Assembly: GCA_963718605.1 (NCBI GenBank)
Contig: OY970363.1
Location: 1,795,239 to 1,859,238 of the forward strand
DNA from: an uncultured Actinomycetes bacterium
Lineage (GTDB): Bacteria > Actinomycetota > Acidimicrobiia > Acidimicrobiales > JACCXE01
Direction: 5' to 3'
DNA: 64,000 bases
In this document: positions 24,752 to 46,125 of the stretch, one piece after another
How the letters are laid out: every line of letters begins with the position of its first letter
Numbering within the stretch: position 1 is the stretch's first letter
Program-made: the position numbers and the translations under genes
Notes under the pieces: model-generated
The model's database searches: none
The model's input: only the letters and a program-made list of their open reading frames with translations
What the model was told of the DNA's origin: nothing

Positions 24752-26707
24752 CTATGCGGCGCTGCCGGCGCGATACGCGGCCACGATGTCGGCGACGTCG
24801 CCCATCATCTCGGCCAGCGCGTAATCCTTCGGCGTGTACACCGCGGTAACGCCGCCATCGATCAGCTTGCGCGCGTCTTCGTCCGGGATGATCCCCCCGA
24901 CGATGACGGGCGCGTCAACACCGGCGGCGCGCACCAAGCGGATCACTTCGGGCACCAGTTCGAGGTGGCCGCCCGACAGGATCGACAGCCCGATCACGTC
25001 CACGTCTTCGTCGCGGGCGGCGTCGGCGATCTGCTGCGGCGTGAGGCGAATGCCCTGATAGATCACTTCGAAGCCGGCATCGCGCGCGGCGACCGCGACC
25101 TGCTCGGCGCCGTTCGAGTGCCCGTCCAGTCCCGGCTTGGCCACGAGGAACCGCGGCGGCCCACCGATCAACGCGTTGACCTTGGCCAAGGTCGGCCCCA
25201 TCTCCGCACCCCGGCCTCCGACCGCGCCGCTGACTCCGGTGGGCGCGCGGTACTCGCCGAACACGGAACGCAACGCTTCGGCCCACTCGCCCGTGGTCCC
25301 GCCGGCATGGGCGAGTGCGATCGTGGCGGGCATCACGTTCTCATCGGTACCGGCCACGCGGCGTAACTCGGCCAGCGCCGCGTTCACCGCCGCGCTGTCG
25401 CGCGACGCGCGCCATTCCTTCAACTCTTCCTTCGCTGCGACTTCGACGGCCGGATCGACCTTGAGGATCGCGCCCTCGCCACCGAGCGGCGACACCGCGG
25501 TCTCCTGGAAGCAGTTGACGCCGACGACTTGCTGCTCGCCGACCTCGATGCGCCGGGCCCGCGCGGCCTGCGAGCGCACGAGCCGCGACTTCAACTCTTC
25601 GATGGCCTCGAACGCGCCGCCCAACGCCTGGATCTCGTCGAACTCGGCGAACGCCGCGTCCACCAACTCCGCGGTGCGCGCTTCGATCACGTGCGAGCCC
25701 GTGAAGATGTCGTCGTACTCGAGCAGGTCCGTCTCGAACGCGAGCACCTGCTGCATGCGCAACGCCCACTGCTGATCCCACGGGCGGGGCAGGCCGAGCG
25801 CTTCGTTCCACGCCGGCAACTGCAAGGAACGGGTGCGGGCGTCCTTCGACAGCGTGACGCCCAGCATCTCCAACACGATGCGCTGCACGTTGTTCTCGGG
25901 TTGCGCTTCGGTGAGACCCAGCGAGTTGACCTGCACCGCGTAACGGAACCGACGCGCCTTGGCGTCGGTGACGCCGTAGCGCTCCGAACAGATGCGATCC
26001 CACATGATGCCGAAGGCGCGCATCTTGCAGACCTCCTCCACGAACCGGATGCCCGCGTTCACAAAGAACGAAATGCGCTCGACGACCTTCGGCAGTTCGT
26101 CGGGTGCGACCTGCCCCGAGTCGCGCACGCCGTCCAACACGCCGACCGCGGTGGCCATGGTGAAGGCGAGTTCCTGCACCGGCGTCGCGCCGGCTTCTTG
26201 CAGGTGGTAGCTGCAGACGTTGATCGGATTCCAGCGGGGTACGTGGTTCACCGTGTAGGCGATGGTGTCGACGGTGAGCCGCCGCGACGCCTCGGGCGGG
26301 AAGATGTACGTGCCGCGGGACAGGTACTCCTTGATGATGTCGTTCTGCGTCGTGCCGCCGAGGACCGACGGGTCGATGCCGCGGTTCTCGGCGTTCGCGA
26401 TGTACAACGCGAGCAGCCACGAGGCCGGGGCGTTGATCGTCATCGATGTCGTCAATTCGTCAACGGGGATCTGATCGAACAGCTGCGCGACGTGACCCAG
26501 GTGCACGACGGGCACGCCGACCTTGCCGACCTCACCCGCCGCCTGCGGCGCGTCGGGGTCGTAACCGGTCTGGGTTGGCAGATCGAAGGCGACCGACAGG
26601 CCGGTCTGTCCCTTGGCCAAATTGGTCCGGTACAGCTCGTTCGACGCCTTCGCCGTCGAGTGTCCGGAGTAGGTGCGCATGACCCAGGGGCGATCCGCCA
26701 TACCCAT
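24752..26707 (-). CDS. meaA: B12-dependent acyl-CoA mutase, MeaA/ethylmalonyl-CoA-mutase-like (catalytic and B12-binding domains fused)
   Basis: The N-terminus RPWVMRTYSGHSTAKASNELYRTNLAKGQTGLSVAFDLPTQTGYDPD matches my recollection of MeaA/Ecm better than McmA. The C-terminal cobalamin loop is GLDGHSNGAEQVA (DxHxxG). The substrate assignment is an inference. Confidence 0.8.
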   Translation of the reverse strand: MGMADRPWVMRTYSGHSTAKASNELYRTNLAKGQTGLSVAFDLPTQTGYDPDAPQAAGEVGKVGVPVVHLGHVAQLFDQIPVDELTTSMTINAPASWLLALYIANAENRGIDPSVLGGTTQNDIIKEYLSRGTYIFPPEASRRLTVDTIAYTVNHVPRWNPINVCSYHLQEAGATPVQELAFTMATAVGVLDGVRDSGQVAPDELPKVVERISFFVNAGIRFVEEVCKMRAFGIMWDRICSERYGVTDAKARRFRYAVQVNSLGLTEAQPENNVQRIVLEMLGVTLSKDARTRSLQLPAWNEALGLPRPWDQQWALRMQQVLAFETDLLEYDDIFTGSHVIEARTAELVDAAFAEFDEIQALGGAFEAIEELKSRLVRSQAARARRIEVGEQQVVGVNCFQETAVSPLGGEGAILKVDPAVEVAAKEELKEWRASRDSAAVNAALAELRRVAGTDENVMPATIALAHAGGTTGEWAEALRSVFGEYRAPTGVSGAVGGRGAEMGPTLAKVNALIGGPPRFLVAKPGLDGHSNGAEQVAVAARDAGFEVIYQGIRLTPQQIADAARDEDVDVIGLSILSGGHLELVPEVIRLVRAAGVDAPVIVGGIIPDEDARKLIDGGVTAVYTPKDYALAEMMGDVADIVAAYRAGSAA

Positions 26708-26737
26708 ATGGTCGCATTCTCGTTACCATGTCGTCAC

Positions 26738-27217
26738 ATGGGTGGTTCGATGCTTCTTCGCTTGCTTGGGGTGGTCGCATTTGCCGCTGCGCCCGCCGCC
26801 GCGCTGGAGACCGGTCCAACGCCGGCGATCAGTACGGGCGACGCGATCGCGGTGCCCGCTGACGGAGGCGTCCAGAACACCGGCGGCAACGTCGAAGTCG
26901 GCGAAGGCGAGCACACCTCGACCGTCGTCATTGGTGACCCGTCGGCAGCTCCGGCCCTCGTTCCCGGCACCCTCGCAGTCGTACCGAAACCCGGCATCGC
27001 CAAGGCGCCGGGTGCCGATGCCGTCGCTCGGGCCAAGGCGCTCGTCGACGCAGCCAAGGCTCGGGCCCAGGCGCAGATCGACGCCGCCCGCGCCGCCGCC
27101 GACCGCGCGGTGGAGCAGGCCCACCAGGCCGCCGCTGACGCGCAGGCGCATTCCCAGCAGCAGTCCGATGCTGCCCGGGCGAACGCCGCCGCGGCATCCG
27201 CTCGTTCAAACCCCTAG
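26738..27217 (+). CDS. secreted Ala-rich coiled-coil protein (159 aa)
   Basis: ATG 26738. Signal peptide MLLRLLGVVAFAAAPAAA. The C-terminal half is Ala/Gln/Asp-rich helical sequence. It forms the 3' end of a long shadow ORF lying antisense to meaA. Confidence 0.5.
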   Translation: MGGSMLLRLLGVVAFAAAPAAALETGPTPAISTGDAIAVPADGGVQNTGGNVEVGEGEHTSTVVIGDPSAAPALVPGTLAVVPKPGIAKAPGADAVARAKALVDAAKARAQAQIDAARAAADRAVEQAHQAAADAQAHSQQQSDAARANAAAASARSNP

Positions 27218-27262
27218 CGCGTCGCTAACCTGCACCGCTCAGTCAACGTTTTGGAGAACCGC

Positions 27263-27760
27263 GTGTCGCGCCTGAAGCTTTCCCACCTCGGATGGGCCGC
27301 AGCCGCGGCCGGAGCCGCCACCGTCGCATTCATCAGCGCGGGTGGCTCGACGCCGCTTACGCCGGCCGCCACCCAGCTGGACGCCACGCCCGGCACCGTG
27401 CCCAATGTCGTGCGGCCCACGACGCCAACCTTCGTCACTCCCACCGCACCGCCGCGGCCGGTAATCGTGCGGCCGACCATCCCGACCCGGGTCACCACCC
27501 CTGGCTCGCCGACCACCGTCAACCCCGACAAGGCGCGTCAAGATGCCGAGAAGGACGCCGCCAAGAAACGGGCGGAGGCCGAAAAGAACCGTCAGCAGGC
27601 TGAGCAGGATGCGGCCAAGAAGCGCGCGGAGGCCGAGAAGCAGCGTCAGCAGGCTGAGCAGGATGCGGCCAAGAAGCGGGCCGAGGCCGAGAAGCAGCGC
27701 TCCGACGCCGAGAAGATGCGCAACAGCACCACCACGACCCCGACGACTGCCAAGCCCTAG
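27263..27760 (+). CDS. secreted/anchored protein with Pro/Thr linker and tandem 18-aa charged repeats
   Basis: GTG 27263 sits 5 nt after ggaga. It has a hydrophobic N-terminus (GWAAAAAGAATVAFISAGG) and a PT-rich linker. Three copies of QQAEQDAAKKRAEAEKQR follow. Confidence 0.6.
   Translation: MSRLKLSHLGWAAAAAGAATVAFISAGGSTPLTPAATQLDATPGTVPNVVRPTTPTFVTPTAPPRPVIVRPTIPTRVTTPGSPTTVNPDKARQDAEKDAAKKRAEAEKNRQQAEQDAAKKRAEAEKQRQQAEQDAAKKRAEAEKQRSDAEKMRNSTTTTPTTAKP
27539..27700 (+). repeat. 54-bp tandem repeat, three copies (coding)
   Basis: The units are 27539-27592 (diverged), 27593-27646 and 27647-27700. Copies 2 and 3 differ at only a few positions. Confidence 0.9.
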
Positions 27761-28609
27761 TTAGTAACTGTAAAAACCTTGGCCGCTTTTGCGGCCGAGT
27801 TGCTGGGCGGTGAGCATCCGGCGCAGCGTGGGTGCGGTGGCGTAGTTCGGGTCCTTGTACTCCTCGTAGAGCGCGTCGAGGATCGCCACGCTGGTGTCGA
27901 GGCCGACCAGGTCGAGCAGCGCCAGCGGGCCCATTGGGAAGTTGCAGCCACCCTGCATCGCCGAGTCGATGTCTTCGGCCGAGGCAATGCCGCGCTCGAG
28001 CATCTTCACCGCGTTGTTGAGGTACGGGAACAGCAGCGCGTTCACGATGAAGCCGGCTTCGTCTTTCACGGTGACGGGTGACTTGCCGCAGGCCGTGGCG
28101 AAGGCGAGGGCTTCGGCGATCGTCTCGTCGCTCGCGGTGAGCGGGCGCACGATCTCGACGAGCTTCATCGCCGGCGCCGGGTTGAAGAAGTGGACGCCGC
28201 ACACCTTGTCGGGGCGGCCTGTCTCCATCGCCAGGTCGATGACCGACAGCGTCGACGTGTTGGTGGCGAGGATCGCGCTGTCCTGCACGATGCGGTCGAG
28301 TTCGTTGAAGAGTTCCTTCTTGGCTTCGAGGTCCTCGACGATGGACTCGAGCACCAGGTCGCAGTCCTTCAACGCCGTCAGTTCCGAGGTGGCCGTAACG
28401 CGACTGAGCGCGGCGTCGCGGTCCTCCGCCGTGATCTTTTCTCGATCGACCTGCTTCGCCAACGACTTCTCGAGCGACGCGAGCATCGCGTCGGCGGTCT
28501 CCTGCCGGCGGCTGCGCAACACCACTTCGTGACCCGTCTTCGCCGCTACTTCCGCGACGCCCGAGCCCATGATTCCGGATCCGACAATGCCGACACGCTT
28601 AATGGTCAT
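27761..28609 (-). CDS. hbd: 3-hydroxybutyryl-CoA / 3-hydroxyacyl-CoA dehydrogenase
   Basis: ATG 28609 (MTIKRVGIVGSGIMGSGVAEV, a Rossmann GxGxxG). Typical HCDH N- and C-terminal domains are present. The upstream 67 codons of the ORF-track version were rejected. Confidence 0.9.
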   Translation of the reverse strand: MTIKRVGIVGSGIMGSGVAEVAAKTGHEVVLRSRRQETADAMLASLEKSLAKQVDREKITAEDRDAALSRVTATSELTALKDCDLVLESIVEDLEAKKELFNELDRIVQDSAILATNTSTLSVIDLAMETGRPDKVCGVHFFNPAPAMKLVEIVRPLTASDETIAEALAFATACGKSPVTVKDEAGFIVNALLFPYLNNAVKMLERGIASAEDIDSAMQGGCNFPMGPLALLDLVGLDTSVAILDALYEEYKDPNYATAPTLRRMLTAQQLGRKSGQGFYSY

Positions 28610-28670
28610 GGCGGCGCAGGTTACTTGGCGGTAACGGGGCACTGCCTGGTCGGCCACTACGTTCGTCGCC

Positions 28671-29312
28671 GTGGCCCACCCTCTATTCGCTGCCTGGTAC
28701 GACCGCAGCATGGACCACCTCGACGCGGCCGGACTGGGCGAACGCCGCGAGCGCCTCATCGCCCAGGCCCGCGGGCGCGTGCTCGAAATTGGCGCCGGCA
28801 CCGGCCGCAACCTGCCCTTTTACCGTGACGTGACCGAGGTGGTGGCCCTCGAGCCGGACGCCGCGATGTCCAAACGGCTGCGCGCCCGCGTCGACCAGGC
28901 GGTGGTACCGGTCACCCTCGTGGAGTCGACGATCGCCCAAGCGCGGCTCGCGCCCGCCTCGTTCGACACCATCGTGTGCAGCCTCGTGCTGTGCTCGGTC
29001 GAGGACGTCGACAGCACGGTTCGGCACATAGACGAACTGCTGGCGCCTGACGGCCACGTCCTCGCGCTCGAACACGTCCGGGGGACAGGCTGGCGCGGCC
29101 GCATGCAGGACGCGTCGACTCCGGTGTGGCGCCACATGGCTGCGGGCTGCCGGGCCAACCGGGATCCGATCGACGCGCTGCGCCGCAACGGATTCGCAAT
29201 CACCGACTGCGATCGGTTCATGATGAACCGCACGTTCCCGATCGTGGCGCCGCACATCGCGGCTGTCGCGGTACGAAAGGGAATCCGATCTTTTGAGGGA
29301 GCAAACGAGTGA
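28671..29312 (+). CDS. class I SAM-dependent methyltransferase
   Basis: Motif I is VLEIGAGTGRN. Acidic post-I and motif II-like regions are present. 213 aa. Confidence 0.8.
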   Translation: MAHPLFAAWYDRSMDHLDAAGLGERRERLIAQARGRVLEIGAGTGRNLPFYRDVTEVVALEPDAAMSKRLRARVDQAVVPVTLVESTIAQARLAPASFDTIVCSLVLCSVEDVDSTVRHIDELLAPDGHVLALEHVRGTGWRGRMQDASTPVWRHMAAGCRANRDPIDALRRNGFAITDCDRFMMNRTFPIVAPHIAAVAVRKGIRSFEGANE

Positions 29313-29957
29313 CGGGCTGGTTGGCATTGGTAGGCGGTCACGAGTGGACCGAAGGCTGCCGTCCTATCGACGAGTTGCTGCTCAAGGAGACCGGCGCCAA
29401 GGAGGTGCTGGTGGTCCCGACCGCGGCGGCTTATGAGCAACCCAAGCGGATGGTCGCGGCGGCTACCGATTACTTCGGTGCCCTGGGCGTCAAAGTGAAC
29501 GCACTCGACCTGCTGGCGCGCCCGGCCGCGAGCGACAAGGCGAACGTGAAGGCGGTGAAGAACGCGTCGCTGGTGTACTTCGCCGACGGCTCGCCCCTTC
29601 ATCTGCGGTCAGTGTTGAAGGACACGCCGTGGTGGGACGCACTGGTCGCCGCGTGGAACGACGGCACGGCGGTCGCGGGCACCGGTGCAGGAGCGATGGT
29701 GCTCGGCGATCCAATGGTGGATCCGCGCGGTGGTGCGTTCACGCTCGGGCTTGGCCTCGTGCCGTCGATGGCGTCGATGACCAAGACCGCCGACTGGCAC
29801 CACGAGACCAAGCGTCGAACGATTCAGCTGGCCACAAAAGGCCTGCCGGTTGTCGCGGTCGACGACGCCACCGCAGTGATGCGTTCGCCCAAGGGCAAGT
29901 GGTCAGTAGTCGGCGTTGGCTCCGCCACCGTCTACTGCGACGGCAACGAAGCGGCTC

Positions 29958-29974
<17 letters not shown>
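29309..29974 (+). CDS. peptidase S51 / cyanophycinase-like (type 1 glutamine-amidotransferase-like fold) protein
   Basis: The layout is LALVGG...VLVVPTAAA...LVYFADGSPLHL...GTAVAGTGAGAMVLG. The position normally holding the nucleophile (G-x-S-A-G-A) reads GTGAGA. Confidence 0.6.
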
Positions 29975-30506
<532 letters not shown>

Positions 30507-30508
30507 GT

Positions 30509-31333
30509 CTACTCCTCGGTGATGGTGACTTTGACGATGTGGTGTTCGACCGTGGGTGTGCCCGCCGCCGACCCGTCGTCGTTGATCTTCTTCGCGACGT
30601 CGAGGCCATCGGTGATCGTGCCGAACGGCGAGTACTTCGCCACGCCGCCGACCGCGGCCAGCAACTGGTCGGCGCCGTTCTGGGATACCACCAGGAAGAA
30701 CTGCGAGCCGTTCGTATTCGGGCCCGAGTTGGCCATGGCGATGTCGCCGAGCTTGTACTTGTAGCCGTCCGGGATTTCGTCCTCGAACTGGTAGCCGGGC
30801 CCGCCCGAACCGGTTCCCAGTGGGTCGCCGCCCTGATCGACGAAGTCCGGAATCACGCGATGGAACACGGTGCCGTCGAAGAACTTGTTGCGGGCCAGGA
30901 ACACGAAGTTGTTGACCGTCTTCGGCGACTGCTTGGCGTCGAAGGTGATCGTGATGTCGCCCACATCCGTCTTGACCAACGCGGAGTACGCCTTGCTCGT
31001 ATCGATACACATCTTGGGTGCGGACGGGAAGGAGCGAAACTGCTTCTTGGTCCCCGACGCGGGGGGACAGGTGTTCGGGTCCCCGACCGCCGGGGCCTTG
31101 GCCGACGTCGTGCTTTTCAGAGCGGTGGTGGTCGAACTCTTGGTCGACACCTTTGTGCCGTCGTCGTCGCCACCAAGTGGCCCGAAGAAATACAGCAGCC
31201 CGACAACTACGACGACGGCGGCCAGAATGCCGACGATCTGGTTCCGGCGTTTGGACTTGGCTTGGGCTGCAATCAGGGCCTCTTGGCGGGCCCGGCTGTT
31301 TTCCCGTTGACGTTGTCGCTTGTCGCTTGGCAC
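30509..31333 (-). CDS. ppiB: cyclophilin-type peptidyl-prolyl isomerase with N-terminal membrane anchor
   Basis: Basic N-terminus plus a TM (IVGILAAVVVVVGLLYFF). Then FHRVIPDFVDQGG and IAMANSGPNTNGSQFFL. Confidence 0.9.
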   Translation of the reverse strand: MPSDKRQRQRENSRARQEALIAAQAKSKRRNQIVGILAAVVVVVGLLYFFGPLGGDDDGTKVSTKSSTTTALKSTTSAKAPAVGDPNTCPPASGTKKQFRSFPSAPKMCIDTSKAYSALVKTDVGDITITFDAKQSPKTVNNFVFLARNKFFDGTVFHRVIPDFVDQGGDPLGTGSGGPGYQFEDEIPDGYKYKLGDIAMANSGPNTNGSQFFLVVSQNGADQLLAAVGGVAKYSPFGTITDGLDVAKKINDDGSAAGTPTVEHHIVKVTITEE

Positions 31334-31403
31334 GGCGGCGAAAGCTACACGGTCTGTTTATCCACTTCGAAGGCGGGGGGTCGACGCTTGTACCCTTTAC
31401 GCC

Positions 31404-34038
<2,635 letters not shown>

Positions 34039-34042
<4 letters not shown>

Positions 34043-34353
34043 TGTGCGATCGCCACGACCGCGGCGATGTTCGCAGCCACACTCACCGGCACACTCCACG
34101 TAACCCACCGCACAGCGGCGATGGCCCCGGGTTCGTCCGCGTAGTCGCGTGCAAGTTGGCGCGCGAGGTCGAGGCCGCCGAGCGCAAAGCCCGGGTGCAC
34201 AACGCCGAGCGCGCCACAGCTTTTGGCAAGACCGCGGTAGCGAGAGCGACTCGAGGGTGACGGCGCGTTGGCGACCGCGTCCGCCGCGCTCGCCCAGAGG
34301 AGAAACAGCGGGATACCGAAGCCCGCGTAGTACAGCACTAAGTAATTGGTCAT
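34039..34353 (-). CDS. hypothetical small membrane protein (104 aa)
   Basis: Hydrophobic N- and C-terminal segments. A 4-nt overlap with the downstream gene suggests translational coupling. Confidence 0.4.
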
Positions 34354-34452
34354 CGAAGGCTCTTTCTTGTCGAAGGTCGCGACGCGCGTGTCGACGCGGG
34401 CGCGGAAGGCCGCATGCGCCGCAATGGCGGCGGGCGACGAAGGAAGCGCGAG

Positions 34453-34845
34453 CTAGCTGAGAGCGGCCGAGGCGGGCGGAGCCCGGCCAGGCACCGGGCC
34501 GACACCAGCGGTGCGGGTCCGGATCGCGTTCTCCACGACAGCGTCCAAGGGGCGTGCGCGTTGCAAACGCGTGAGTGCACGCGGAGTGCCTGCAAAAACG
34601 CCTTCGATGGCGGCGCGGATGCCGTTCGTTGGGTCGAGCCGAGCGAACGAGGTGAGGCTGGTGTGATCGCCGTTGCTCAAGACCGCGAGGGGTGCGTCGC
34701 CCGAATCCGACGTCACAATGAGTCGGGCGGCGGACCACGGCGACGGGGTGGCGGTCGGCTGAGCATGGAAGGCGGACCACCCGCTGACGCTCATCGCGAT
34801 CGCGACGACGGCGGCAAACGCCACAGAGAGAGGTCGCCGCGTCAC
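34453..34845 (-). CDS. hypothetical secreted protein (130 aa)
   Basis: Signal-peptide-like N-terminus (LSVAFAAVVAIAMSVSGWSAFHA). The start overlaps the stop of the upstream antiporter gene by 4 nt. Confidence 0.45.
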   Translation of the reverse strand: MTRRPLSVAFAAVVAIAMSVSGWSAFHAQPTATPSPWSAARLIVTSDSGDAPLAVLSNGDHTSLTSFARLDPTNGIRAAIEGVFAGTPRALTRLQRARPLDAVVENAIRTRTAGVGPVPGRAPPASAALS

Positions 34846-36017
34846 GCGCTGGAGGGTACCTCGCGCCGGTCAGCAAACTTTGCGGCGAGCGGACCAGCGA
34901 TCGCGGACATGAGCACGTAACAGGCCGCGAGCGCGCCGAGCTCGGGGCCGTGCGCGGTATCGACGCCGAGGCTCGCGATCACCACCGAGAACTCGCCGCG
35001 AGCAAGCAAGGCCGTCCCCGCGCGTAGGCGCGCGGTGCTGGAGAGCCCTTGCGATGCCGTGGCGACGCGACCCACGAGCAACTTCCCAGCGCCGGTGACG
35101 ACCAACAGCGCCGCCGCCGGAATCACGAGGGTCGCCAGGTCGCTGACGTCGATCTGGAAGGAGAAAAACAGGAAGAACGTGGCCGCGAACAGATCGCGCA
35201 GGGGTCGGATAAGCGAATGCGCGCGTGACTGCACCGTCCCAGAGAGAGCAAGCCCGACGAGAAACGCACCGATCGCGGCCGACACGTGGACGCGCTGGGC
35301 CAAACCGCCGACCAGCAGCGTGAGGCCAAAAACGGACAGCAAGAGTGACTCGTCTGACCCGGCAGCGAGCAGGCGGCTGAGGCGTTGACCCCAGCGCAGT
35401 GCGGCGGTGAGCGTGAAGGCGACGGTGCCGAGCGCGATCGTCACGGCGACGACGGTCGCGGTCGGGCTTTGGCGCGCCACCAACGCTCCCACGATCGGTA
35501 GATACGCCGCCATCGCCAAGTCCTCGAAGACGAGCAGGTTGAGAACCGCCGGCGTCTCCGGGTTGCTCGTCCAGTCGAAGTCACTCAGGATGCGCGACGT
35601 CACGCCTGACGAACTGACCCAGCACACGCCTCCGAGTAACACGGCGACGGTGACGCTCCACCCCAAAACCAGACCGGCGACAAATCCGGGCGTGAAGTTG
35701 ATTACCGCATCAGCTACTCCGGCGATTACTCCGCCCCTGAGGCCGCGCCGCAGTTCGTCGGCGCTGTACTCAAGCCCGAGCGTCAGTAAGAGCAGCAGCA
35801 CCCCGATCTCCGCTGCCAGCGAGATGAAGTGCGCGCTTACGTCGAGTTGGGCGACGCCGCCCTTGCCCACCGCGAGTCCGGCGACCAGATAAAAGGGAAC
35901 CGCCGGAATCCCGATCCGCGACGCCAGCCGCGCGAGACCCGACAACGCCACCACGACGGCGCCCAGTTCGATGAATGCAAGCGATGTTTCCGGGTCAACG
36001 GCGCCGATGAGGGTCAC
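34842..36017 (-). CDS. cation:proton antiporter (CPA2/Kef-type Na_H_Exchanger), membrane domain only
   Basis: 391 aa, polytopic throughout. N-terminal sequence is IELGAVVVALSGLARLASRIGIPAVPFYLVAGLAVGKGG. There is no RCK tail. Confidence 0.85.
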   Translation of the reverse strand: MTLIGAVDPETSLAFIELGAVVVALSGLARLASRIGIPAVPFYLVAGLAVGKGGVAQLDVSAHFISLAAEIGVLLLLLTLGLEYSADELRRGLRGGVIAGVADAVINFTPGFVAGLVLGWSVTVAVLLGGVCWVSSSGVTSRILSDFDWTSNPETPAVLNLLVFEDLAMAAYLPIVGALVARQSPTATVVAVTIALGTVAFTLTAALRWGQRLSRLLAAGSDESLLLSVFGLTLLVGGLAQRVHVSAAIGAFLVGLALSGTVQSRAHSLIRPLRDLFAATFFLFFSFQIDVSDLATLVIPAAALLVVTGAGKLLVGRVATASQGLSSTARLRAGTALLARGEFSVVIASLGVDTAHGPELGALAACYVLMSAIAGPLAAKFADRREVPSSA

Positions 36018-36178
36018 GCTTAAGTCTGACCGGCTGTCCGCGCCACAGATTGAATTAAGGCCGCGCTACCAAGGGGACCTCCAGCCCTCAGCGCGCCCTC
36101 CCGCTCTCTGTCAACGATCTGACGTAATAATGACCTCCGCGCGCTAGCGCGGTCGTCCCCCAATTGGTGCTTTCTTCT

Positions 36179-36197
36179 GCGGCGCGTTGCGCGCCGC
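36179..36197 (+). promoter_or_regulatory. GC stem-loop in the presumed amt 5' leader
   Basis: The sequence gcggcgcg-ttg-cgcgccgc forms an 8-bp perfect stem. It sits 26 nt upstream of GTG 36223. A 12-nt palindrome cgcgctagcgcg lies at 36140-36151. Function unknown. Confidence 0.3.
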
Positions 36198-36222
36198 CTT
36201 ACAAATACTGGAGGTCTGTCTC

Positions 36223-40507
<4,285 letters not shown>

Positions 40508-40525
40508 ATGGGTCCTTACGCGTAG

Positions 40526-40567
40526 CGGACGCGGGCGGCGCAGCCGAAGCTGCGCCACCCGCGTCCG
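40526..40567 (-). other. 19-bp GC-rich stem-loop between amt copy 2 and the antiporter-fusion gene
   Basis: The sequence is cggacgcgggcggcgcagc-cgaa-gctgcgccacccgcgtccg, with one mismatch. No U-tract follows on the minus-strand transcript. Confidence 0.6.
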
Positions 40568-40584
40568 TCGAACGCGAGCGTTGC

Positions 40585-42180
40585 TTAGTAGCTAGGTGTA
40601 CTCGGAGATGCGGACACCGGGTTGCTGGGCTGCGCGTATGGCGCGGCCGCCGCAACGACGGGCGGAGCTGAGGCGAAGGCAAACTCCGGATAGGCGAGAG
40701 CGCCCATCTCGGGGATGTCCATACCCTCGATCTCTTCGTCGGCCGGCGGACGGATGCCGCCCTTCATGATCCCGTTCTGCACCTTGAAGAACAGATACGC
40801 GATGCCGAAGATCACGGTCCAGATCGTGAGCACGCCGAGCGCCTGCGCTCCCAGCTGACCCAGACCCGGATCCATGCCGTAGAAGAGGCCAGTGACGCCG
40901 TGCGCCGCTGCGGAGCCCTCGGTGGTCCCGTTCCACCCAGCGCCGTACGAGCCGTTGGCGAAGAGGCCCACAGCCAGTACGCCGAAGCTGCCGCACACAC
41001 CGTGCACTGCGATGGCGCCGACCGGGTCGTCGATCTTCATCTTGTTCTCGATGAAGCTCACGGCACCGATGACGAGGATGCCTGCGATGATGCCGATTAC
41101 GGCGGCGGCCCAAGCGTCGACGAAGGCGCAGGGTGCGGTGATGGCAACGAGGCCGGCGAGCATGCCGTTGACCATCATCCCGGGATCGGGCTTCTTGTCG
41201 CCCTTCATCATCAGGACGAACATGGTCGTGACGGCACCGAACGCAGCAGCCAGAGCCGTGTTCGCAGCAACCGTGGCGAACTGCACGTCGGTTACGGCGA
41301 AGGTCGACGCCGCGTTGAAGCCGAACCAGCCGAACAGCAGGATGAAGCAGCCGAGCATCGCCATCGGGATGTGGTGACCCGGAAGCGTGTTGGCCGAGCC
41401 GTCCTTGTTGAACTTGCCGATGCGGGGACCGAGCACGATGGCACCGGCGAGACCGGCAACACCGCCGACCGCATGCACGACACCGGAACCGGCGAAGTCG
41501 ACATAGCCGAGCCCGAGGTGCAACGACTCACCGACCTTGGCCAGCCAGCCGCCACCCCAAGTCCAGGCGCCGAAGATCGGGTAGTAGATCGCGCCGCAGA
41601 ACAAGCCCCAGCCGACGAACGCCTTCCACTTCCAGCGTTCCGCCATGGCACCGGTGGGAATGGTGGCCACGGTGTCCATGAAGGCCACCATGTAGAGGAA
41701 GAAGCCCATCACTGCAGGCGCTCCGGCTTTGCCGATGTCGGTGAGCGCCCAGCCGCCCTTCCACAGGAAGATCCAGTTGCCCGACCCGATGAGCGAACCG
41801 CCGAGCGGCGCGTTGTAACCGATGAGGGACAAGCTGTAGCCGCCGAACATCAGCGGGTAGCCGATGAGGAAGTACGCGACGAAACCCAAGCCGAAGATGG
41901 CGAAGTTCGTCGACACGACGTGCGAGGCGTGCTTGGCTCGGCAGAAACCGGTCTCGACCAGTGCGAAGCCAGCCTGCATGAAGATGACCAGAACGGCGCC
42001 GAGCACAACCCAGAGCAGGTTGACCTGCGTCCCCAGAGTCTCGACTGGTGTCAGTTTGTCGGCTGCGCCGGCGACACCTGACCAGGCAAGGCTGGCCGCC
42101 GCGGCTACCCCCACACCGACAGCGGCCTTTAGGCCAAACCGTCTGAGGGCCCCGGCAGAGGTACGCATGTTTGATGACAT
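40585..42180 (-). CDS. amt: ammonium transporter (Amt family), copy 2, with signal peptide and Pro/Ala-rich C-terminal tail
   Basis: ATG 42180 comes after aaggaag. Signal-like N-terminus (AAVGVGVAAAASLAWSGVAGA). Signatures: FMQAGFALVETGFCRAKH, VDFAGSGVVHAVGG. Confidence 0.9.
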   Translation of the reverse strand: MSSNMRTSAGALRRFGLKAAVGVGVAAAASLAWSGVAGAADKLTPVETLGTQVNLLWVVLGAVLVIFMQAGFALVETGFCRAKHASHVVSTNFAIFGLGFVAYFLIGYPLMFGGYSLSLIGYNAPLGGSLIGSGNWIFLWKGGWALTDIGKAGAPAVMGFFLYMVAFMDTVATIPTGAMAERWKWKAFVGWGLFCGAIYYPIFGAWTWGGGWLAKVGESLHLGLGYVDFAGSGVVHAVGGVAGLAGAIVLGPRIGKFNKDGSANTLPGHHIPMAMLGCFILLFGWFGFNAASTFAVTDVQFATVAANTALAAAFGAVTTMFVLMMKGDKKPDPGMMVNGMLAGLVAITAPCAFVDAWAAAVIGIIAGILVIGAVSFIENKMKIDDPVGAIAVHGVCGSFGVLAVGLFANGSYGAGWNGTTEGSAAAHGVTGLFYGMDPGLGQLGAQALGVLTIWTVIFGIAYLFFKVQNGIMKGGIRPPADEEIEGMDIPEMGALAYPEFAFASAPPVVAAAAPYAQPSNPVSASPSTPSY

Positions 42181-42247
42181 GTAGGTCTGCTTCCTTTCAG
42201 CAGCAATACGGTTGAGTTGCTACGAGGACGCACCCTGATGCACGCGT

Positions 42248-42285
42248 GTTTCGCAAACGCGCCTGCATCGTTTCGGCTGTGTGAA
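42248..42285 (-). promoter_or_regulatory. GlnR-type binding box (a1-n6-b1-n6-a2-n6-b2) upstream of amt copy 2
   Basis: The minus strand reads TTCAC-acagcc-GAAAC-gatgca-GGCGC-gtttgc-GAAAC, ending 67 nt upstream of the start codon. It fits the actinomycete GlnR consensus gTnAc-n6-GaAAc-n6-GtnAc-n6-GAAAc. It is near-identical to the box at 43749-43786. Confidence 0.55.
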
Positions 42286-42366
42286 CTTCACTTTTTCAAC
42301 GGACTCCGGAAACACGTTCGAAACAGTGAGCCGCCGTAAACGGCACCGATCGGTCAGACTCTCGAC

Positions 42367-42564
42367 GTGACAGAACCAGCAGGAGACGAGTTCAATCGCC
42401 GCCGCATCCGGCTTGGGCTGGCGATTCTCGGTGTCGTACTGGCGGTGGCGTTGTTCGTCGCAGTCGTGGTGCACGACCCGCTCGCGCGGTTGATCATGGG
42501 CGGCGTCGTGGTCTTCACTGTCTTTCGGCTTTACGTCCTCATCCGTTCACTGCGTCGGTCGTAG
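42367..42564 (+). CDS. hypothetical small two-TM membrane protein (65 aa)
   Basis: GTG start. Two clear hydrophobic helices (LGLAILGVVLAVALFVAVVV; IMGGVVVFTVFRLYVLI). It ends 5 nt before the next gene. Confidence 0.4.
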   Translation: MTEPAGDEFNRRRIRLGLAILGVVLAVALFVAVVVHDPLARLIMGGVVVFTVFRLYVLIRSLRRS

Positions 42565-42569
42565 GCGGC

Positions 42570-43364
42570 ATGCCAACGCTCGAACGCGCTGACGTAGTCA
42601 TCGCGTACGACGACAACGGCGGAGGCGGCGGTCCGCCGTTCGTGTTCGTGCACGGCTGGACGTGTGACCGCTCGTTCTTCGCTCCGCAGTTCGACTACTT
42701 CGGTGCGAACCATCGGGCGCTCGCACTCGATTTGCGCGGGCACGGCGAGAGCGGGCGGCCGGCGACGAGCGACTATTCGATTTCGGCGTTCGCGAGCGAC
42801 GTCGCGGCGGTGATCGACGAAGTGCTCGCTGCGCCGGCGGTCGTGGTGGGCCATTCGTTGGGCGGTGTGATCACGACGCAGCTTGCGGCTACGCGGCCCG
42901 ATCTTGTGGCTGCCGCGATCCTCGTGGACCCTGCACCTTTCGTCTTTTCCGCCGACTTTCGCGCCGTGATCGAGGCGGTCTTCGGGGAGATCGCTTCGTC
43001 TGAGGGTGAAGCGAGGCGAGCCGCCATCGTCGAGGGCATGTTCATGGCGACCGACGACGCCGAGCGCAGAGCCGGCATCGTGTCGGTGATGGCCGCCGTG
43101 CCCCACGAGATCGCGGCCCCCGCGATCGGCGGTTTGCTGTCGTTCGACGGCCCGGCCGCGTTAGCCGCGGTGCAGTGTCCGATCGCAGTGATCGCCTCGG
43201 ATGGCCCCGTCAACGATGCCGCCCTGATGAAGCAGTGCAACCCCCGGCTGCTGATCGGCCAAACCCTCGGTGCGGGTCACTTCAACCAACTGGAAGTGCC
43301 TGATCAGGTCAACGCCATGATCGAGCACTTCGTGCGCATCAACGCGCCGACCGCGCTGAGCTAA
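42570..43364 (+). CDS. alpha/beta hydrolase
   Basis: It has FVFVHGW and the nucleophile elbow VVGHSLGGV, with a C-terminal GAGHF histidine region. Confidence 0.8.
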   Translation: MPTLERADVVIAYDDNGGGGGPPFVFVHGWTCDRSFFAPQFDYFGANHRALALDLRGHGESGRPATSDYSISAFASDVAAVIDEVLAAPAVVVGHSLGGVITTQLAATRPDLVAAAILVDPAPFVFSADFRAVIEAVFGEIASSEGEARRAAIVEGMFMATDDAERRAGIVSVMAAVPHEIAAPAIGGLLSFDGPAALAAVQCPIAVIASDGPVNDAALMKQCNPRLLIGQTLGAGHFNQLEVPDQVNAMIEHFVRINAPTALS

Positions 43365-43702
43365 ATCGCCTCGTCGCCTTGCTCGGACGTACGAATCCGC
43401 ATGAGGGACGTGAGTTCGTAGCTCCAGATCTTGCCATCACCCACCTTGCCGGTGTGCGCCGACGTTGCGATGAGGTCGACAACCTTGTTCAGATCGCTCT
43501 TCTCGCACAGCACTTCGATTTTGACCTTCGGTACGAATTCCATCTTGTACTCGGAGCCCCGAAAGCTTTCGGTCTTACCGCCCTGGCGGCCGAATCCGCT
43601 CACCTCGGTGACGGTCAGCCCGAGCATTCCGGCGGCGCGCAAGTTTTCCTTCACATCTTCGAGCTTGAAGGGCTTGATAATCGCGGTAACCAGGTGCGCC
43701 AT
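43361..43702 (-). CDS. glnB: P-II nitrogen regulatory protein, copy 2
   Basis: ATG 43702 comes after aaggagaa. The sequence is MAHLVTAIIKPFKLEDV...GFGRQGGKTESFRGSEYKMEFVPKVKIEV. The Tyr equivalent to Y51 is retained (RGSEY). It is divergent from glnD. Confidence 0.9.
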   Translation of the reverse strand: MAHLVTAIIKPFKLEDVKENLRAAGMLGLTVTEVSGFGRQGGKTESFRGSEYKMEFVPKVKIEVLCEKSDLNKVVDLIATSAHTGKVGDGKIWSYELTSLMRIRTSEQGDEAI

Positions 43703-43748
43703 CGTTCTCCTTACGACCGAACTACGCACCGAAACGTACGGAGACGAA

Positions 43749-43786
43749 ATTTCTCGTCAGTTCCGCTTACGTTTCGGCAGTGTGAA
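43749..43786 (-). promoter_or_regulatory. GlnR-type binding box in the glnB/glnD divergent intergenic region
   Basis: The minus strand reads TTCAC-actgcc-GAAAC-gtaagc-GGAAC-tgacga-GAAAT. It lies 46 nt from the glnB start and 50 nt from the glnD start. The first 19 nt (GTTCACAC[A/T]GCCGAAACG) are 18/19 identical to the amt copy 2 box. Confidence 0.55.
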
Positions 43787-43836
43787 CTGACGCGAGCCTT
43801 ACGCCTAGGAAGTTCTGGCCCTCGTACGCTGAATCC

Positions 43837-46125
43837 ATGGAGCTCGACCGCGCCGGGTTGATCACCGATCGGTCCCGCACGGGGGCGGCGTGGTGCCTGG
43901 CGTACAGCGATGCGGTCGATCGTTGGCTCGCCGGACTCTTCGAGGCGGCCAGCGACAGCGACGAGAACGGTCTGGCGCTTGTCGCCGTGGGCGGGTACGG
44001 ACGCGCGGAGCTGGCTCCCGGGAGCGACATCGACCTCATGCTGCTGCACAACGGACGCGGGGACATTGAAGCGATCGCCAACCGCGTTTGGTATCCGATC
44101 TGGGACAGCGGGCTGCACCTCGGCCACAGTGTGCAGACGCCCAAGCAGGCGCTCAGCCTCGCAGCAGACGACCTCGACACGGCGACGGCGCTTTTGAGTG
44201 CTCGCCATGTCGCCGGAGATTCGCGCCTCACTGCAGAACTCGGTGGCGCCGCGCACGCTCAGTGGACGAAACGGTCCAAACGCTGGTTGCAGGCGCTCGG
44301 CGATCGTGTCGACGAACGTCACGCCAGCGCCGGTGAAGTCGCGTTCCGGCTCGAACCCGATCTGAAAGACGGTCGCGGTGGCCTGCGCGACGTGCACGCC
44401 CTGCGGTGGGCTGAGTTGGCCGATCGCGTGCTCGTCGAACACGACGACGCCGCGCTAGTTGCGGCGTACGAAATTCTGCTGAACGCACGTGTCGAGTTGC
44501 AACGCATCACGGGTCGCAACGGCAACGTCGTGCATCTGCAAGACCAGCGCGCGGTGGCGGCGAACCTCGGATTTGGTTCGAGCGACGAGTTGATGTCGGG
44601 CGTGGCCGAGGCGGCCCGCACGATTGCCTGGACCAGCGACGACACTTGGCGACGAGTTCGTGCCGGATTCAAGAGCTCAGTGGCCCGCGTAAGGCGCCGT
44701 GCCAAAGAAGTTGGCCCGGGCATCACGTTGAGCGACGACGAGCTTCATGTCGACCCCGCAATCGCGGCGCGCGATCCGCTGATGGCGCTGCGCGTCGCGG
44801 TTGCGGCGGCGCGTGACGACGTCGCCATCGAGCGCGAGTCGTTGGAGTTGTTGGCCAAGACGCCGACGTTGCCTGCGCGCTGGAACGACGAGATGCGCGG
44901 CTTGTTCGTGGACCTGTTCCTCGCAGGCCGGCCGGCGATTCGCGTGGTCGAGGCGTTCGACCAGCGCGGCGTGTGGACGCGCATGATGCCGGAGTGGCTG
45001 CCGGTGCGAGCCAAGCCGCAGCACAACGCGTACCACCGCTTCACCGTCGACCGTCACCTCCTCGAAGCCACCGCGAACGCCGCCGCGCTCACAGACCGCG
45101 TGTCCCGACCGGATCTCTTGGTTATGGGCGCACTGATGCACGATCTCGGAAAGGGGCTGCCGGGCGACCACACCGAGGTCGGCATGACGCTCGTGGCCGC
45201 GCTCGCGGAGCGAATGGGCTTCTCAGCAGACGACGCGGCCACGCTCGTGGCGATGGTCGAACACCACCTGCTTCTGCCTGACGTCGCGACGCGTCGCGAC
45301 CTGGACGATCCGTCCACCATCGAACGCGTTGCGGACCAGGTCGGCAGCGCCGAACGCCTCGAGCTGTTGGCCGCACTCACCGAGGCGGACTCGCTGGCGA
45401 CCGGCCCGTCGGCGTGGAGCCCCTGGAAGGCTCACCTACTCGCACAACTCGTCGCCCGCGTCGGCCACGTCCTCGGCGGTGGCGAGGCGACCGTGGCAAC
45501 CGCCGGGTCGTTCCCCCGCGACGAGCAACTTGACGCGCTCAAGGAACCCGGCCAGCGCATCGATGCACAAGGCGACCTGCTCACGATCATGACCGACGAC
45601 CGTCCCGGTCTTTTTGCCCGCGTCACCGGCGTGCTCGCGATGCATGGCCTCGACGTGCTCACCGCGGGCGTCTACTCGAGCGCGGACGGGCGCGCCCTCG
45701 AAGAGTTCCGCGTCAACGACCCCTTCCGCGACGAAACCCCGTGGCCGCGCGTCATCGCCGACATTGAGCGCGCCCTGGACGGCCGCCTCGCCGTGCACGC
45801 CCGCGTCGCCGAACGCGCTCGCACCTACGGCAAGCCGTCGCCCTACCTCGCGGGCTCACGTAAGAGCGCGGTCACGATCGACAACCGCGCGTCGGCCGAC
45901 GCCACGGTCATCGACGTGGAGACGCCGGACCGCATCGGCGTGCTGTACGCCATCGCGCGAGCCCTGGCGGAGATGGACCTCGACGTGCGCTCGGCGAAAG
46001 TTCAGACCCTTGGATTGCGCGTGGTGGACGCGTTCTACGTCTGCGACCGCGCCGGCGAGAAGGTCGATGATCCGCACATGCTCGAAGAAATCGAGCGGGC
46101 AATCCTGTACAACCTCACTGGGTAA
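43837..46125 (+). CDS. glnD: [protein-PII] uridylyl/adenylyl-transferase
   Basis: 762 aa. Nucleotidyltransferase motif VAVGGYGRAELAPGSDIDLMLLH. HD domain YHRFTVDRH...LMHDLGK. Two C-terminal ACT domains. Confidence 0.9.
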   Translation: MELDRAGLITDRSRTGAAWCLAYSDAVDRWLAGLFEAASDSDENGLALVAVGGYGRAELAPGSDIDLMLLHNGRGDIEAIANRVWYPIWDSGLHLGHSVQTPKQALSLAADDLDTATALLSARHVAGDSRLTAELGGAAHAQWTKRSKRWLQALGDRVDERHASAGEVAFRLEPDLKDGRGGLRDVHALRWAELADRVLVEHDDAALVAAYEILLNARVELQRITGRNGNVVHLQDQRAVAANLGFGSSDELMSGVAEAARTIAWTSDDTWRRVRAGFKSSVARVRRRAKEVGPGITLSDDELHVDPAIAARDPLMALRVAVAAARDDVAIERESLELLAKTPTLPARWNDEMRGLFVDLFLAGRPAIRVVEAFDQRGVWTRMMPEWLPVRAKPQHNAYHRFTVDRHLLEATANAAALTDRVSRPDLLVMGALMHDLGKGLPGDHTEVGMTLVAALAERMGFSADDAATLVAMVEHHLLLPDVATRRDLDDPSTIERVADQVGSAERLELLAALTEADSLATGPSAWSPWKAHLLAQLVARVGHVLGGGEATVATAGSFPRDEQLDALKEPGQRIDAQGDLLTIMTDDRPGLFARVTGVLAMHGLDVLTAGVYSSADGRALEEFRVNDPFRDETPWPRVIADIERALDGRLAVHARVAERARTYGKPSPYLAGSRKSAVTIDNRASADATVIDVETPDRIGVLYAIARALAEMDLDVRSAKVQTLGLRVVDAFYVCDRAGEKVDDPHMLEEIERAILYNLTG

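Follow-up and report, generated by a model that had tools for sequence, protein, structure and literature searches.

Genes for nitrogen control are gathered between 33.6 and 46.1 kb of a 64,000-nucleotide stretch of DNA (hereafter the window) from an uncultured bacterium of the Acidimicrobiales (assembly GCA_963718605.1, contig OY970363.1, positions 1,795,239 to 1,859,238). The region encodes two ammonium transporters (Amt1 and Amt2), two PII proteins, an intact GlnD and two antiporters of the CPA2 type, one of which continues into a C-terminal tail related to GlnD; this fusion protein and its pairing with amt2 are the main subject here. Gene identities were assigned from Pfam and NCBIfam profile scores on the open reading frames (ORFs) of the window. 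All genes named in a preliminary description of this DNA are present, among them the antiporter fused to a GlnD-like domain, which is borne out by domain profiles and by hhalign (Table 1).

Genes of the nitrogen-control region

The gene amt1 begins with a GTG codon at 36223 that is preceded by GGAGG, as had been described, and is the first gene of an amt1-glnK pair, with the PII-1 gene following on the same strand after 11 nt in an amtB-glnK type of adjacency. The next gene past PII-1 is the convergent fusion gene, and glnD lies 6 kb off rather than downstream of glnK. The second PII gene starts with an ATG at 43702, has AAGGAG ahead of it and is divergent to glnD. Both PII proteins keep the T-loop residue Tyr51 and share the segment GFGRQ...(K/S)EY in the alignment, in agreement with membership of the PII family. 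The glnD product contains the nucleotidyltransferase (NTase) motif GGYGRAELAPGSDID, an intact HD domain and two ACT domains; it has the GlnD architecture in Pfam (GlnD_UR_UTase, HD and two ACT) and exceeds the equivalog cutoff given in Table 1.

Amt2 is a divergent, 'marine-subtype-like' transporter that scores 301 bits with TIGR03644 and 331 bits with TIGR00836, both under the cutoff. Its N-terminus, which contains RRFGLK, appears signal-peptide-like and its C-terminal tail is rich in Pro and Ala, as read off the translation and as described before. At residues 11-16 (42133-42150, minus strand), ALRRFGLK resembles a twin-arginine motif (RRxFLK), which would be unusual for a polytopic Amt protein.

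Table 1. Features of the 33.6-46.1 kb region, in window coordinates
Feature	Position	Strand	Basis
Three small ORFs: 34453-34845 (130 residues, signal-peptide-like), 34039-34353 (104 residues, hydrophobic), 33638-34042 (134 residues, N-terminal anchor)	33638..34845	-	Frame analysis of G+C content at third codon positions (GC3) and translations
CPA2-a, tail-less cation/proton antiporter, 391 residues	34842..36017	-	Na_H_Exchanger, 144.6 bits
amt1, AmtB-type ammonium transporter	36223..37461 (ORF 36187-37461)	+	Ammonium_transp, 407.8 bits; TIGR00836, 449 bits (cutoff 343)
PII-1 (GlnK-type), 112 residues	37473..37811	+	P-II (PF00543), 103 bits
Fusion (Na_H_Exchanger + GlnD-like + ACT), 899 residues	ORF 37808-40558, start ATG 40507	-	Pfam/NCBIfam; identical to database protein P0001
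Fusion tail, residues 383-899	37808..39361	-	hhalign to GlnD
Fusion transporter domain, residues 1-382	39362..40507	-	Na_H_Exchanger, 218 bits
GC-rich 19-bp hairpin, CUUCGG loop	40526..40567	-	RNAfold
amt2, 531 residues	40585..42180	-	Ammonium_transp, 337.7 bits
GlnR-type operator of amt2	42248..42286	-	17-mer and consensus match
Two-helix membrane protein, 65 residues, divergent to amt2	42367..42564	+	tblastn homologues in related loci
Alpha/beta hydrolase, 264 residues	42570..43364	+	Abhydrolase_6, 85 bits
PII-2 (GlnB-type), 113 residues	43361..43702	-	P-II (PF00543), 93.8 bits
GlnR-type box GTTCACACTGCCGAAAC (43771-43787) in the PII-2/glnD intergenic region	43729..43787	-	Sequence match
glnD, full-length [protein-PII] uridylyl/adenylyl-transferase	43837..46125	+	NF002895, 761 bits (cutoff 631)

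CPA2-a is transcribed divergently from amt1. The three small ORFs downstream of it are peripheral, lie outside the conserved module described below and have no Pfam matches. A single 412-residue ORF at 33638-34876 was considered in their place and rejected, as its GC3 of 0.65 marks it as non-coding; the three small ORFs fit better, and GC3 frame analysis agrees with the preliminary description on this point. The stop codons of PII-1 (plus strand) and of the fusion gene (minus strand) overlap at 37808-37811, so that the amt1-glnK and amt2-fusion units converge without spacer or terminator, and transcripts of one ammonium module could therefore run antisense into the other. A perfect 8-bp GC hairpin, GCGGCGCG-ttg-CGCGCCGC, is located at 36179-36197 (plus strand), about 25 nt 5' of the amt1 start; it has no Rfam match, and Rfam detected no known RNA elements over 33-48 kb. 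On its flanks (31320-33641, plus strand, and 24752-31333), the window carries genes for aspartate kinase, aspartate-semialdehyde dehydrogenase, cyclophilin, 3-hydroxyacyl-CoA dehydrogenase and methylmalonyl-CoA mutase. The same flanking genes are found in a 73%-identical relative (L001), and the wider synteny is therefore common to close relatives.

The alpha/beta hydrolase gene between the 65-residue membrane protein gene and PII-2 is probably a passenger. Among the related loci, a homologue in the neighbourhood was found only in L004, the closest species representative, where it lies beyond the fusion gene on the opposite side. A 532-residue metagenomic protein (P0099) combines an alpha/beta-hydrolase domain with an ACT-ACT segment like that of the fusion tail (E 8.5e-5). 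The hydrolase gene shares a cluster with the fusion gene in the window and in L004, and the tie to the architecture of P0099 may be a coincidence.

The antiporter-GlnD fusion protein

The transporter half of the fusion (residues 1-382) is 36-38% identical to NapA of Thermus across the whole 380-residue domain, with an E-value of 2.7e-57 for the NapA structure 4bwz versus 1.8e-16 for KefC. Its predicted structure superimposes on NapA 5bz2 with a Foldseek TM-score of 0.89 and a root-mean-square deviation of 2.8 A, corresponding to an NhaA-type fold, and the Na_H_Exchanger profile PF00999 is matched far above its cutoff (218 versus 26 bits). With the subfamily model TIGR00932, the N-terminal half scores 177 bits, below the cutoff of 238. 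Across 42 homologues, the Asp-Asp pair D157 and D158 (DD motif) and the lysine K311 do not vary; they correspond in the alignment to D156, D157 and K305 of NapA, and the TATS and PRGE segments of the transporter half are also invariant. Pfam detected no TrkA_N/KTN domain in the fusion, and the KefB and KefC models gave 74-79 bits against cutoffs of 752-804. The N-terminal half is thus, as predicted from these features, a NapA-like CPA2 cation/proton antiporter that looks competent for transport.

The relationship of the tail to GlnD extends well beyond the ACT domains, the only part that is recognised by Pfam (46-47 bits). In hhalign, the tail family aligns with GlnD with a probability of 100% and an E-value of 2.9e-44, positions 16-500 of the tail being placed on residues 291-759 of GlnD. 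TIGR01693 matches the tail over profile positions 453-847 with an E-value of 1.2e-25, at a score (89.9 bits) far under the equivalog cutoff of 519.4. The tail consists of a beta-hairpin, a helical pseudo-HD domain, ACT1 (residues ~712-775) and ACT2 (~812-885). The alignment begins only at GlnD residue 291, and no NTase domain or PF08335 was detected with Pfam in the tail or in the full fusion. The HD domain has also lost its catalytic residues: none of 42 tails has the His of the HD dyad, the GKG loop is deleted, a later His is replaced by R, S or A, and the distal Asp is retained in a single tail of the 42, whereas these residues are kept in all 11 GlnD proteins compared. With the HD metal ligands lost and the NTase domain absent, the tail therefore cannot modify or demodify PII. 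In contrast, the ACT-ACT part is 35% identical to that of the GlnD encoded in the window and keeps the DRxGLL-type loops. Invariant in the tail family are G470, R473, W475, H609, T759, W760, S810, P811 and W812. Taken together, the tail can be identified by alignment as a predicted GlnD from which the nucleotidyltransferase half is missing, in which the HD site is dead and in which both ACT domains are intact.

Structure prediction with AF2 yields a model of the tail with a pLDDT of 89 and a pTM of 0.77, containing the beta-hairpin, a helical bundle and two beta-alpha-beta-beta-alpha-beta units. Searched against PDB sequences, the tail matched only isolated ACT domains and no GlnD structures. 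With Foldseek, the tail gave weak hits to class II CCA-adding enzymes (TM-score 0.33-0.41) and to ACT proteins, the latter including the ACT domains of aspartate kinase, threonine deaminase and SerB. Class II CCA-adding enzymes belong to the same nucleotidyltransferase superfamily as GlnD, and the weak hits of the predicted structure are consistent with a relationship to GlnD, without being decisive.

Distribution, junction and operator of the amt2-fusion cassette

A search with the tail retrieved about 89 clusters at 90% identity, nearly all of them of proteins of about 900 residues from metagenome-assembled genomes (MAGs) of Acidimicrobiales or Acidimicrobiia, which are annotated merely as 'cation:proton antiporter' or 'KefB'. 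An exhaustive profile search (E <= 1e-30) extended the family to 1014 representatives at 50% identity, and every hit in which the N-terminus is present has the CPA2 domain followed by the tail and no other architecture. Hits of ~500-800 residues were considered as alternative architectures, and those of intermediate length turned out to be N-terminally truncated CPA2 fusions; the members of ~500 residues may be fragments or true stand-alone tails. One family member is labelled as a Mycobacteriales MAG or Frankia sp. In a literature search, no publication describing the architecture of a CPA2 transporter with a GlnD-like tail was found. In long-read MAG contigs, amt, glnD or fusion genes are frame-shifted into pieces (L001, L003, L011, L016, L021, L048, L052 and L058); these pieces are probably assembly errors and not pseudogenes, and they raise the count of 'short' family members in protein databases.

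Gene neighbourhoods were compared in 61 loci, comprising 58 from GTDB species representatives (all Acidimicrobiia-type MAGs) and three metagenomic contigs, which were mapped by tblastn with the window proteins. The underlying genome scan used an alignment of four tail sequences and two peptide patterns, and thus under-samples the family and may miss cultured species. Sequence of at least 1.9 kb upstream of the fusion gene, as needed to judge its pairing with amt2, is present in 45 loci. In 32 of these 45, the gene immediately upstream, on the same strand, is of the Amt2 type, and the retention of this pair supports a putative functional link between amt2 and the fused antiporter. Most other loci have amt, PII, Amt1-PII-PII, glnD or an OmpR-type orphan regulator within a few kb. 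In the amt-less fusion subclade, a histidine kinase gene is found directly upstream (L029 and L053), and at one locus of this subclade a 1588-residue NAD-glutamate dehydrogenase is encoded directly downstream of the fusion (L029, 11689-16455, plus strand). The layout of L004, with YkuD-glnD, PII-2, the small transmembrane protein, the amt2-fusion pair and the hydrolase, is that of the window except that the hydrolase gene lies across the amt2-fusion pair.

The 65-residue membrane protein had been described as unrelated to the locus. In 20 loci, tblastn (E <= 1e-5) places a homologue 200-400 bp upstream of amt2 and on the other strand, so the protein is, judging from this synteny, a conserved member of the amt2 module; it has a weak match to DUF6343 (19 bits, under the cutoff), and its gene shares the operator-bearing intergenic region with amt2. 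The preliminary description had further called the locus atypical and expanded, adding that it would be ordinary if its order commonly shared this layout. The comparison of synteny shows that the core arrangement is the common layout of the class and hence ordinary for this lineage. The layout is atypical only in relation to Streptomyces, Corynebacterium and Mycobacterium, and not within the Acidimicrobiia, where the pairing of amt2 with the fusion gene is common. Nor is the locus expanded, the Amt and PII types being old and class-wide: the amt and PII copies can be placed as ancient paralogues found throughout the Acidimicrobiia, with no lineage-specific expansion. The amt2-fusion pair is accordingly, as far as gene order can tell, a common Acidimicrobiia layout, and the locus represents the usual nitrogen-control gene set of the class. 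As for the ammonium modules with associated antiporters that had been proposed, the link of amt2 with the fusion is supported; that of CPA2-a with amt1 is not, as a CPA2-a-type gene near amt genes was found in none of the 61 related loci.

The gap between amt2 and the fusion gene is 77 nt long and is taken up nearly completely by the 19-bp hairpin, for which RNAfold gives -54.4 kcal/mol and which is not followed by a U-tract. Of 25 related loci in which the gap could be measured (within L004-L059), 24 have an equally strong hairpin of unrelated sequence; structure but not sequence is thus conserved. Possible roles of the hairpin are those of a U-less terminator or attenuator, or of a stabiliser of the mRNA by which the ratio of amt2 to fusion expression is set. 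In the window, the ATG of the fusion follows the hairpin after only 18 nt, which contain an AAGGA ribosome-binding site and leave no room for a promoter; expression of the fusion is therefore most simply explained by read-through from the amt2 promoter, and it probably occurs in this way at a lower level than that of amt2. A scan for sigma-70 promoters and terminators returned no promoters, and terminators at chance level.

The operator region of amt2 contains a 17-mer, GTTCACAC[A/T]GCCGAAAC, which occurs at exactly two sites in the 64 kb, ahead of amt2 (42270-42286) and of PII-2 (43771-43787), so that the earlier assignment of a GlnR-type box to amt2 and PII-2 (glnB) only is upheld; the box is not present upstream of amt1. 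The shared box, also referred to as the GTTCACACNGCCGAAAC box, reads TTCAC-n6-GAAAC and fits the actinobacterial GlnR box consensus gTnAc-n6-GaAAc (PMC3087709). The operator of amt2 consists of GTTCAC-ACAGCC-GAAAC, 17 nt and a second GAAAC, and thereby follows an a1-n6-b1-n6-a2-n6-b2 spacing. A 15-nt imperfect inverted repeat (42237-42269, minus strand) overlaps this operator and includes the second GAAAC, and the CCGAAACGTA element of the PII-2 box has a perfect 10-nt inverted copy 29 nt downstream (43729-43738 / 43768-43777). These inverted repeats beside the boxes could be sites for a second regulator or structures of the 5' untranslated regions. A weak box match at 17324, which has three mismatches and lies inside a DUF4395 gene, was taken as a chance occurrence.

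The same box is found ahead of amt2 in L004. In more distant Acidimicrobiia, visual and k-mer inspection of the region upstream of amt2 revealed GTTCAy-n6-G(A/C)GAC/GACAT-n6-GTGAy, followed by a -10-like hexamer TAgGTT/TAcGTT; the first part of these variants can also be written GTTCAy-n6-GnGAC/GACAT. A strict search for T.AC-n6-G.AAC upstream of amt2 in the other loci gave no hits, and the consensus there is related but shifted. Orphan regulators of ~190 residues flank the amt2-fusion cassette in many Acidimicrobiia (L009, 1939-2520; L014, 205-786; L002, 12707-13315; L060, 8149-8817; and others). They combine a winged-helix Trans_reg_C domain with a degenerate receiver-like N-terminus (RWPxEAxRRxxLxxxGxxRLLLV), and none is encoded in the window. 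These proteins are candidates for binding the GlnR-like box.

Interpretation and relation to known systems

We favour, with modest confidence, the reading that the fusion is a cation(NH4+)/H+ antiporter gated by nitrogen status and paired with Amt2 within an ordinary nitrogen gene set. According to this model, the divergent small membrane protein gene, the GlnR-type operator/promoter, amt2, the strong intercistronic hairpin and the gene for the 899-residue fusion would form a conserved cassette that is induced under nitrogen limitation via the GlnR-type box. The dead GlnD tail would sense nitrogen status through glutamine bound to its ACT pair, as in GlnD, and/or through docking of PII on its pseudo-HD domain, and may gate the antiporter by analogy with the KTN domain of KefC. 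The exchange of cations (Na+/K+, possibly NH4+) for H+ could thereby be matched to ammonium uptake by Amt2, providing charge and pH compensation during uptake or an NH4+/H+ overflow valve following an ammonium upshift. Glutamine sensing by GlnD runs through its ACT domains (PMC12702975), and CPA2 antiporters are able to move NH4+, as described for AmhT (PMC9040632). What we infer in this scheme is which ligand is bound, which ion is transported, in which direction regulation runs and that the two genes are co-transcribed.

Several observations weigh against this reading. Thirteen of the 45 informative loci have no amt2 directly upstream of the fusion gene, and for at least six the tblastn map shows nitrogen genes nowhere within 10 kb. 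With a pTM of 0.51, the AF2 model of the full-length protein gives no confident packing of the tail on the transporter. NapA itself is specific for Na+ and Li+, and transport of NH4+ or K+ by the fusion is speculative for this reason. The intercistronic hairpin resembles an actinobacterial U-less terminator, so that transcription of the fusion gene may be largely independent of that of amt2. Finally, a gene for the regulator binding the box was not found in the window by tblastn, and the orphan regulators that flank the cassette elsewhere are atypical members of the OmpR family, for which identity with GlnR is only a candidate assignment.

Among the alternatives, the one that survives best, although we consider it unlikely, is that the tail is mainly a PII-docking pseudo-enzyme and that the protein serves as a membrane anchor or sensor that sequesters or reads modified PII, in the way that AmtB sequesters GlnK, with ion transport being secondary or lost. 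The half of GlnD to which the tail traces back is the one with the uridylyl-removing HD site, which acts on PII-UMP; the tail is no longer catalytic, yet it is strongly conserved, with residues invariant across the family, and two PII genes are present at the locus. However, GlnD has no known PII-binding interface, and the invariance of all CPA2 transport residues (DD, Lys, TATS and PRGE) argues for an active transporter.

Still less probable in our view is a generic antiporter for pH or salt homeostasis, the ACT ligand of which would be an amino acid outside nitrogen signalling and the position of which next to amt would reflect no more than a common requirement for ion balance or a common promoter region. 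Since ACT domains bind many ligands and the structural hits are to varied ACT enzymes, such a ligand is conceivable, and the loci that have no nearby nitrogen genes as well as the histidine kinase upstream in one subclade would fit with it. Yet the likeness to GlnD spans ~470 residues and reaches beyond the ACT domains, the neighbours are overwhelmingly amt, PII, glnD, glutamate dehydrogenase and nitrogen-type regulator genes, and a GlnR-type box is present in the promoter.

The same low probability is assigned to the original view of an atypical, expanded locus made up of two separately regulated modules with one antiporter each, CPA2-a belonging to amt1-glnK and the fusion to a module of amt2 and glnB-glnD. 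In its favour, Amt, PII and CPA2 genes are each present in two copies, and the GlnR-type box on amt2 and PII-2, absent at amt1, is consistent with differential regulation. What speaks against it is that CPA2-a-type genes next to amt1 are missing from all related loci and that the amt2-fusion pair and both types of PII and Amt are class-wide, with nearly the same layout in L004; the locus is therefore not expanded relative to its relatives. A recent duplication or a horizontally acquired island, which several paralogues inside 12 kb might suggest, is very improbable given the low identity of the paralogues (33% for Amt1/Amt2, 54% for PII-1/PII-2 and 27% for CPA2-a and the fusion transporter domain), the even base composition of the region (GC 0.63-0.68) and the orthologues of each type throughout the Acidimicrobiia.

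The nitrogen-status-gated antiporter paired with Amt2 would, if correct, provide a direct, protein-internal link from nitrogen status to cation/proton homeostasis in the form of a transporter with its own GlnD-type sensor, and would clearly illustrate how an enzyme, GlnD, can be put to new use as a sensor domain after losing its catalytic activity. In bacteria, nitrogen status is known to act through PII proteins, the enzymes GlnD and GlnE, and transcription factors. A more far-reaching proposal is that the fusion represents a new output branch of nitrogen signalling, in which a GlnD-derived pseudo-enzyme reads glutamine and/or PII modification and acts directly on the gating of a CPA2 antiporter, and in which the antiporter serves its partner Amt2 as an NH4+(K+/Na+)/H+ safety valve or as a charge/pH compensator, the two forming a class-wide couple without a counterpart in model bacteria; we put this forward tentatively, as a possibility that is on balance doubtful. 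Regulated CPA2 antiporters and GlnD/ACT sensors are already known, and the novelty lies in the uncharacterised, class-wide family in which a dead GlnD appears to be reused as the predicted regulatory domain of a cation/proton antiporter. Acidimicrobiia, including the Microthrixaceae, occur in high numbers in soils, in marine waters and in activated sludge. Most of them are uncultured, and the module could thus be relevant to the way in which they deal with changes in ammonium supply.

The fusion shares features with several known systems. Its transporter half resembles NapA of Thermus thermophilus (4bwz, 5bz2) in the transporter fold, the Asp-Asp pair and the Lys, but NapA has no cytoplasmic regulatory domain, whereas the fusion adds a GlnD-derived tail of 517 residues. 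KefC of Escherichia coli, a K+/H+ antiporter with a KTN/RCK gate that binds glutathione adducts, is similar in joining a CPA2 transporter of related fold (Foldseek E 2e-11) to a cytoplasmic ligand-sensing domain with presumed gating. However, its regulatory domain is unrelated to the fusion tail, and the fusion transporter is much nearer to NapA, scoring far under the Kef equivalog cutoffs (79 versus 804 bits). In alkaliphilic Bacillus, AmhT has a separate KTN-type partner and is not known to be linked to amt or GlnD. AmhT/AmhM, a CPA2-type NH4+(K+)/H+ antiporter implicated in the export of NH4+ for H+, can be regarded as a functional precedent, likened here by description only (PMC9040632). 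The plant ACR proteins have GlnD-like ACT repeats without GlnD catalysis and have been proposed as glutamine/nitrogen sensors (PMC12702975), but differ from the fusion in being soluble and in having four ACT domains, no HD-like domain and no transporter. GlnD itself has a linker, an HD domain, ACT1 and ACT2 that are homologous to the tail, which in contrast has no NTase domain, has lost the HD ligands and is fused to a membrane transporter. In Streptomyces, Corynebacterium and Mycobacterium, amtB, glnK and glnD form an operon under GlnR control. With this operon, the window shares the amt1-glnK pair, a glnD gene in the neighbourhood and a GlnR-type operator, whereas its glnD is divergent to a second PII gene, its box is located at amt2 and PII-2 and not at amt1, and an extra Amt and the antiporter fusion are added.

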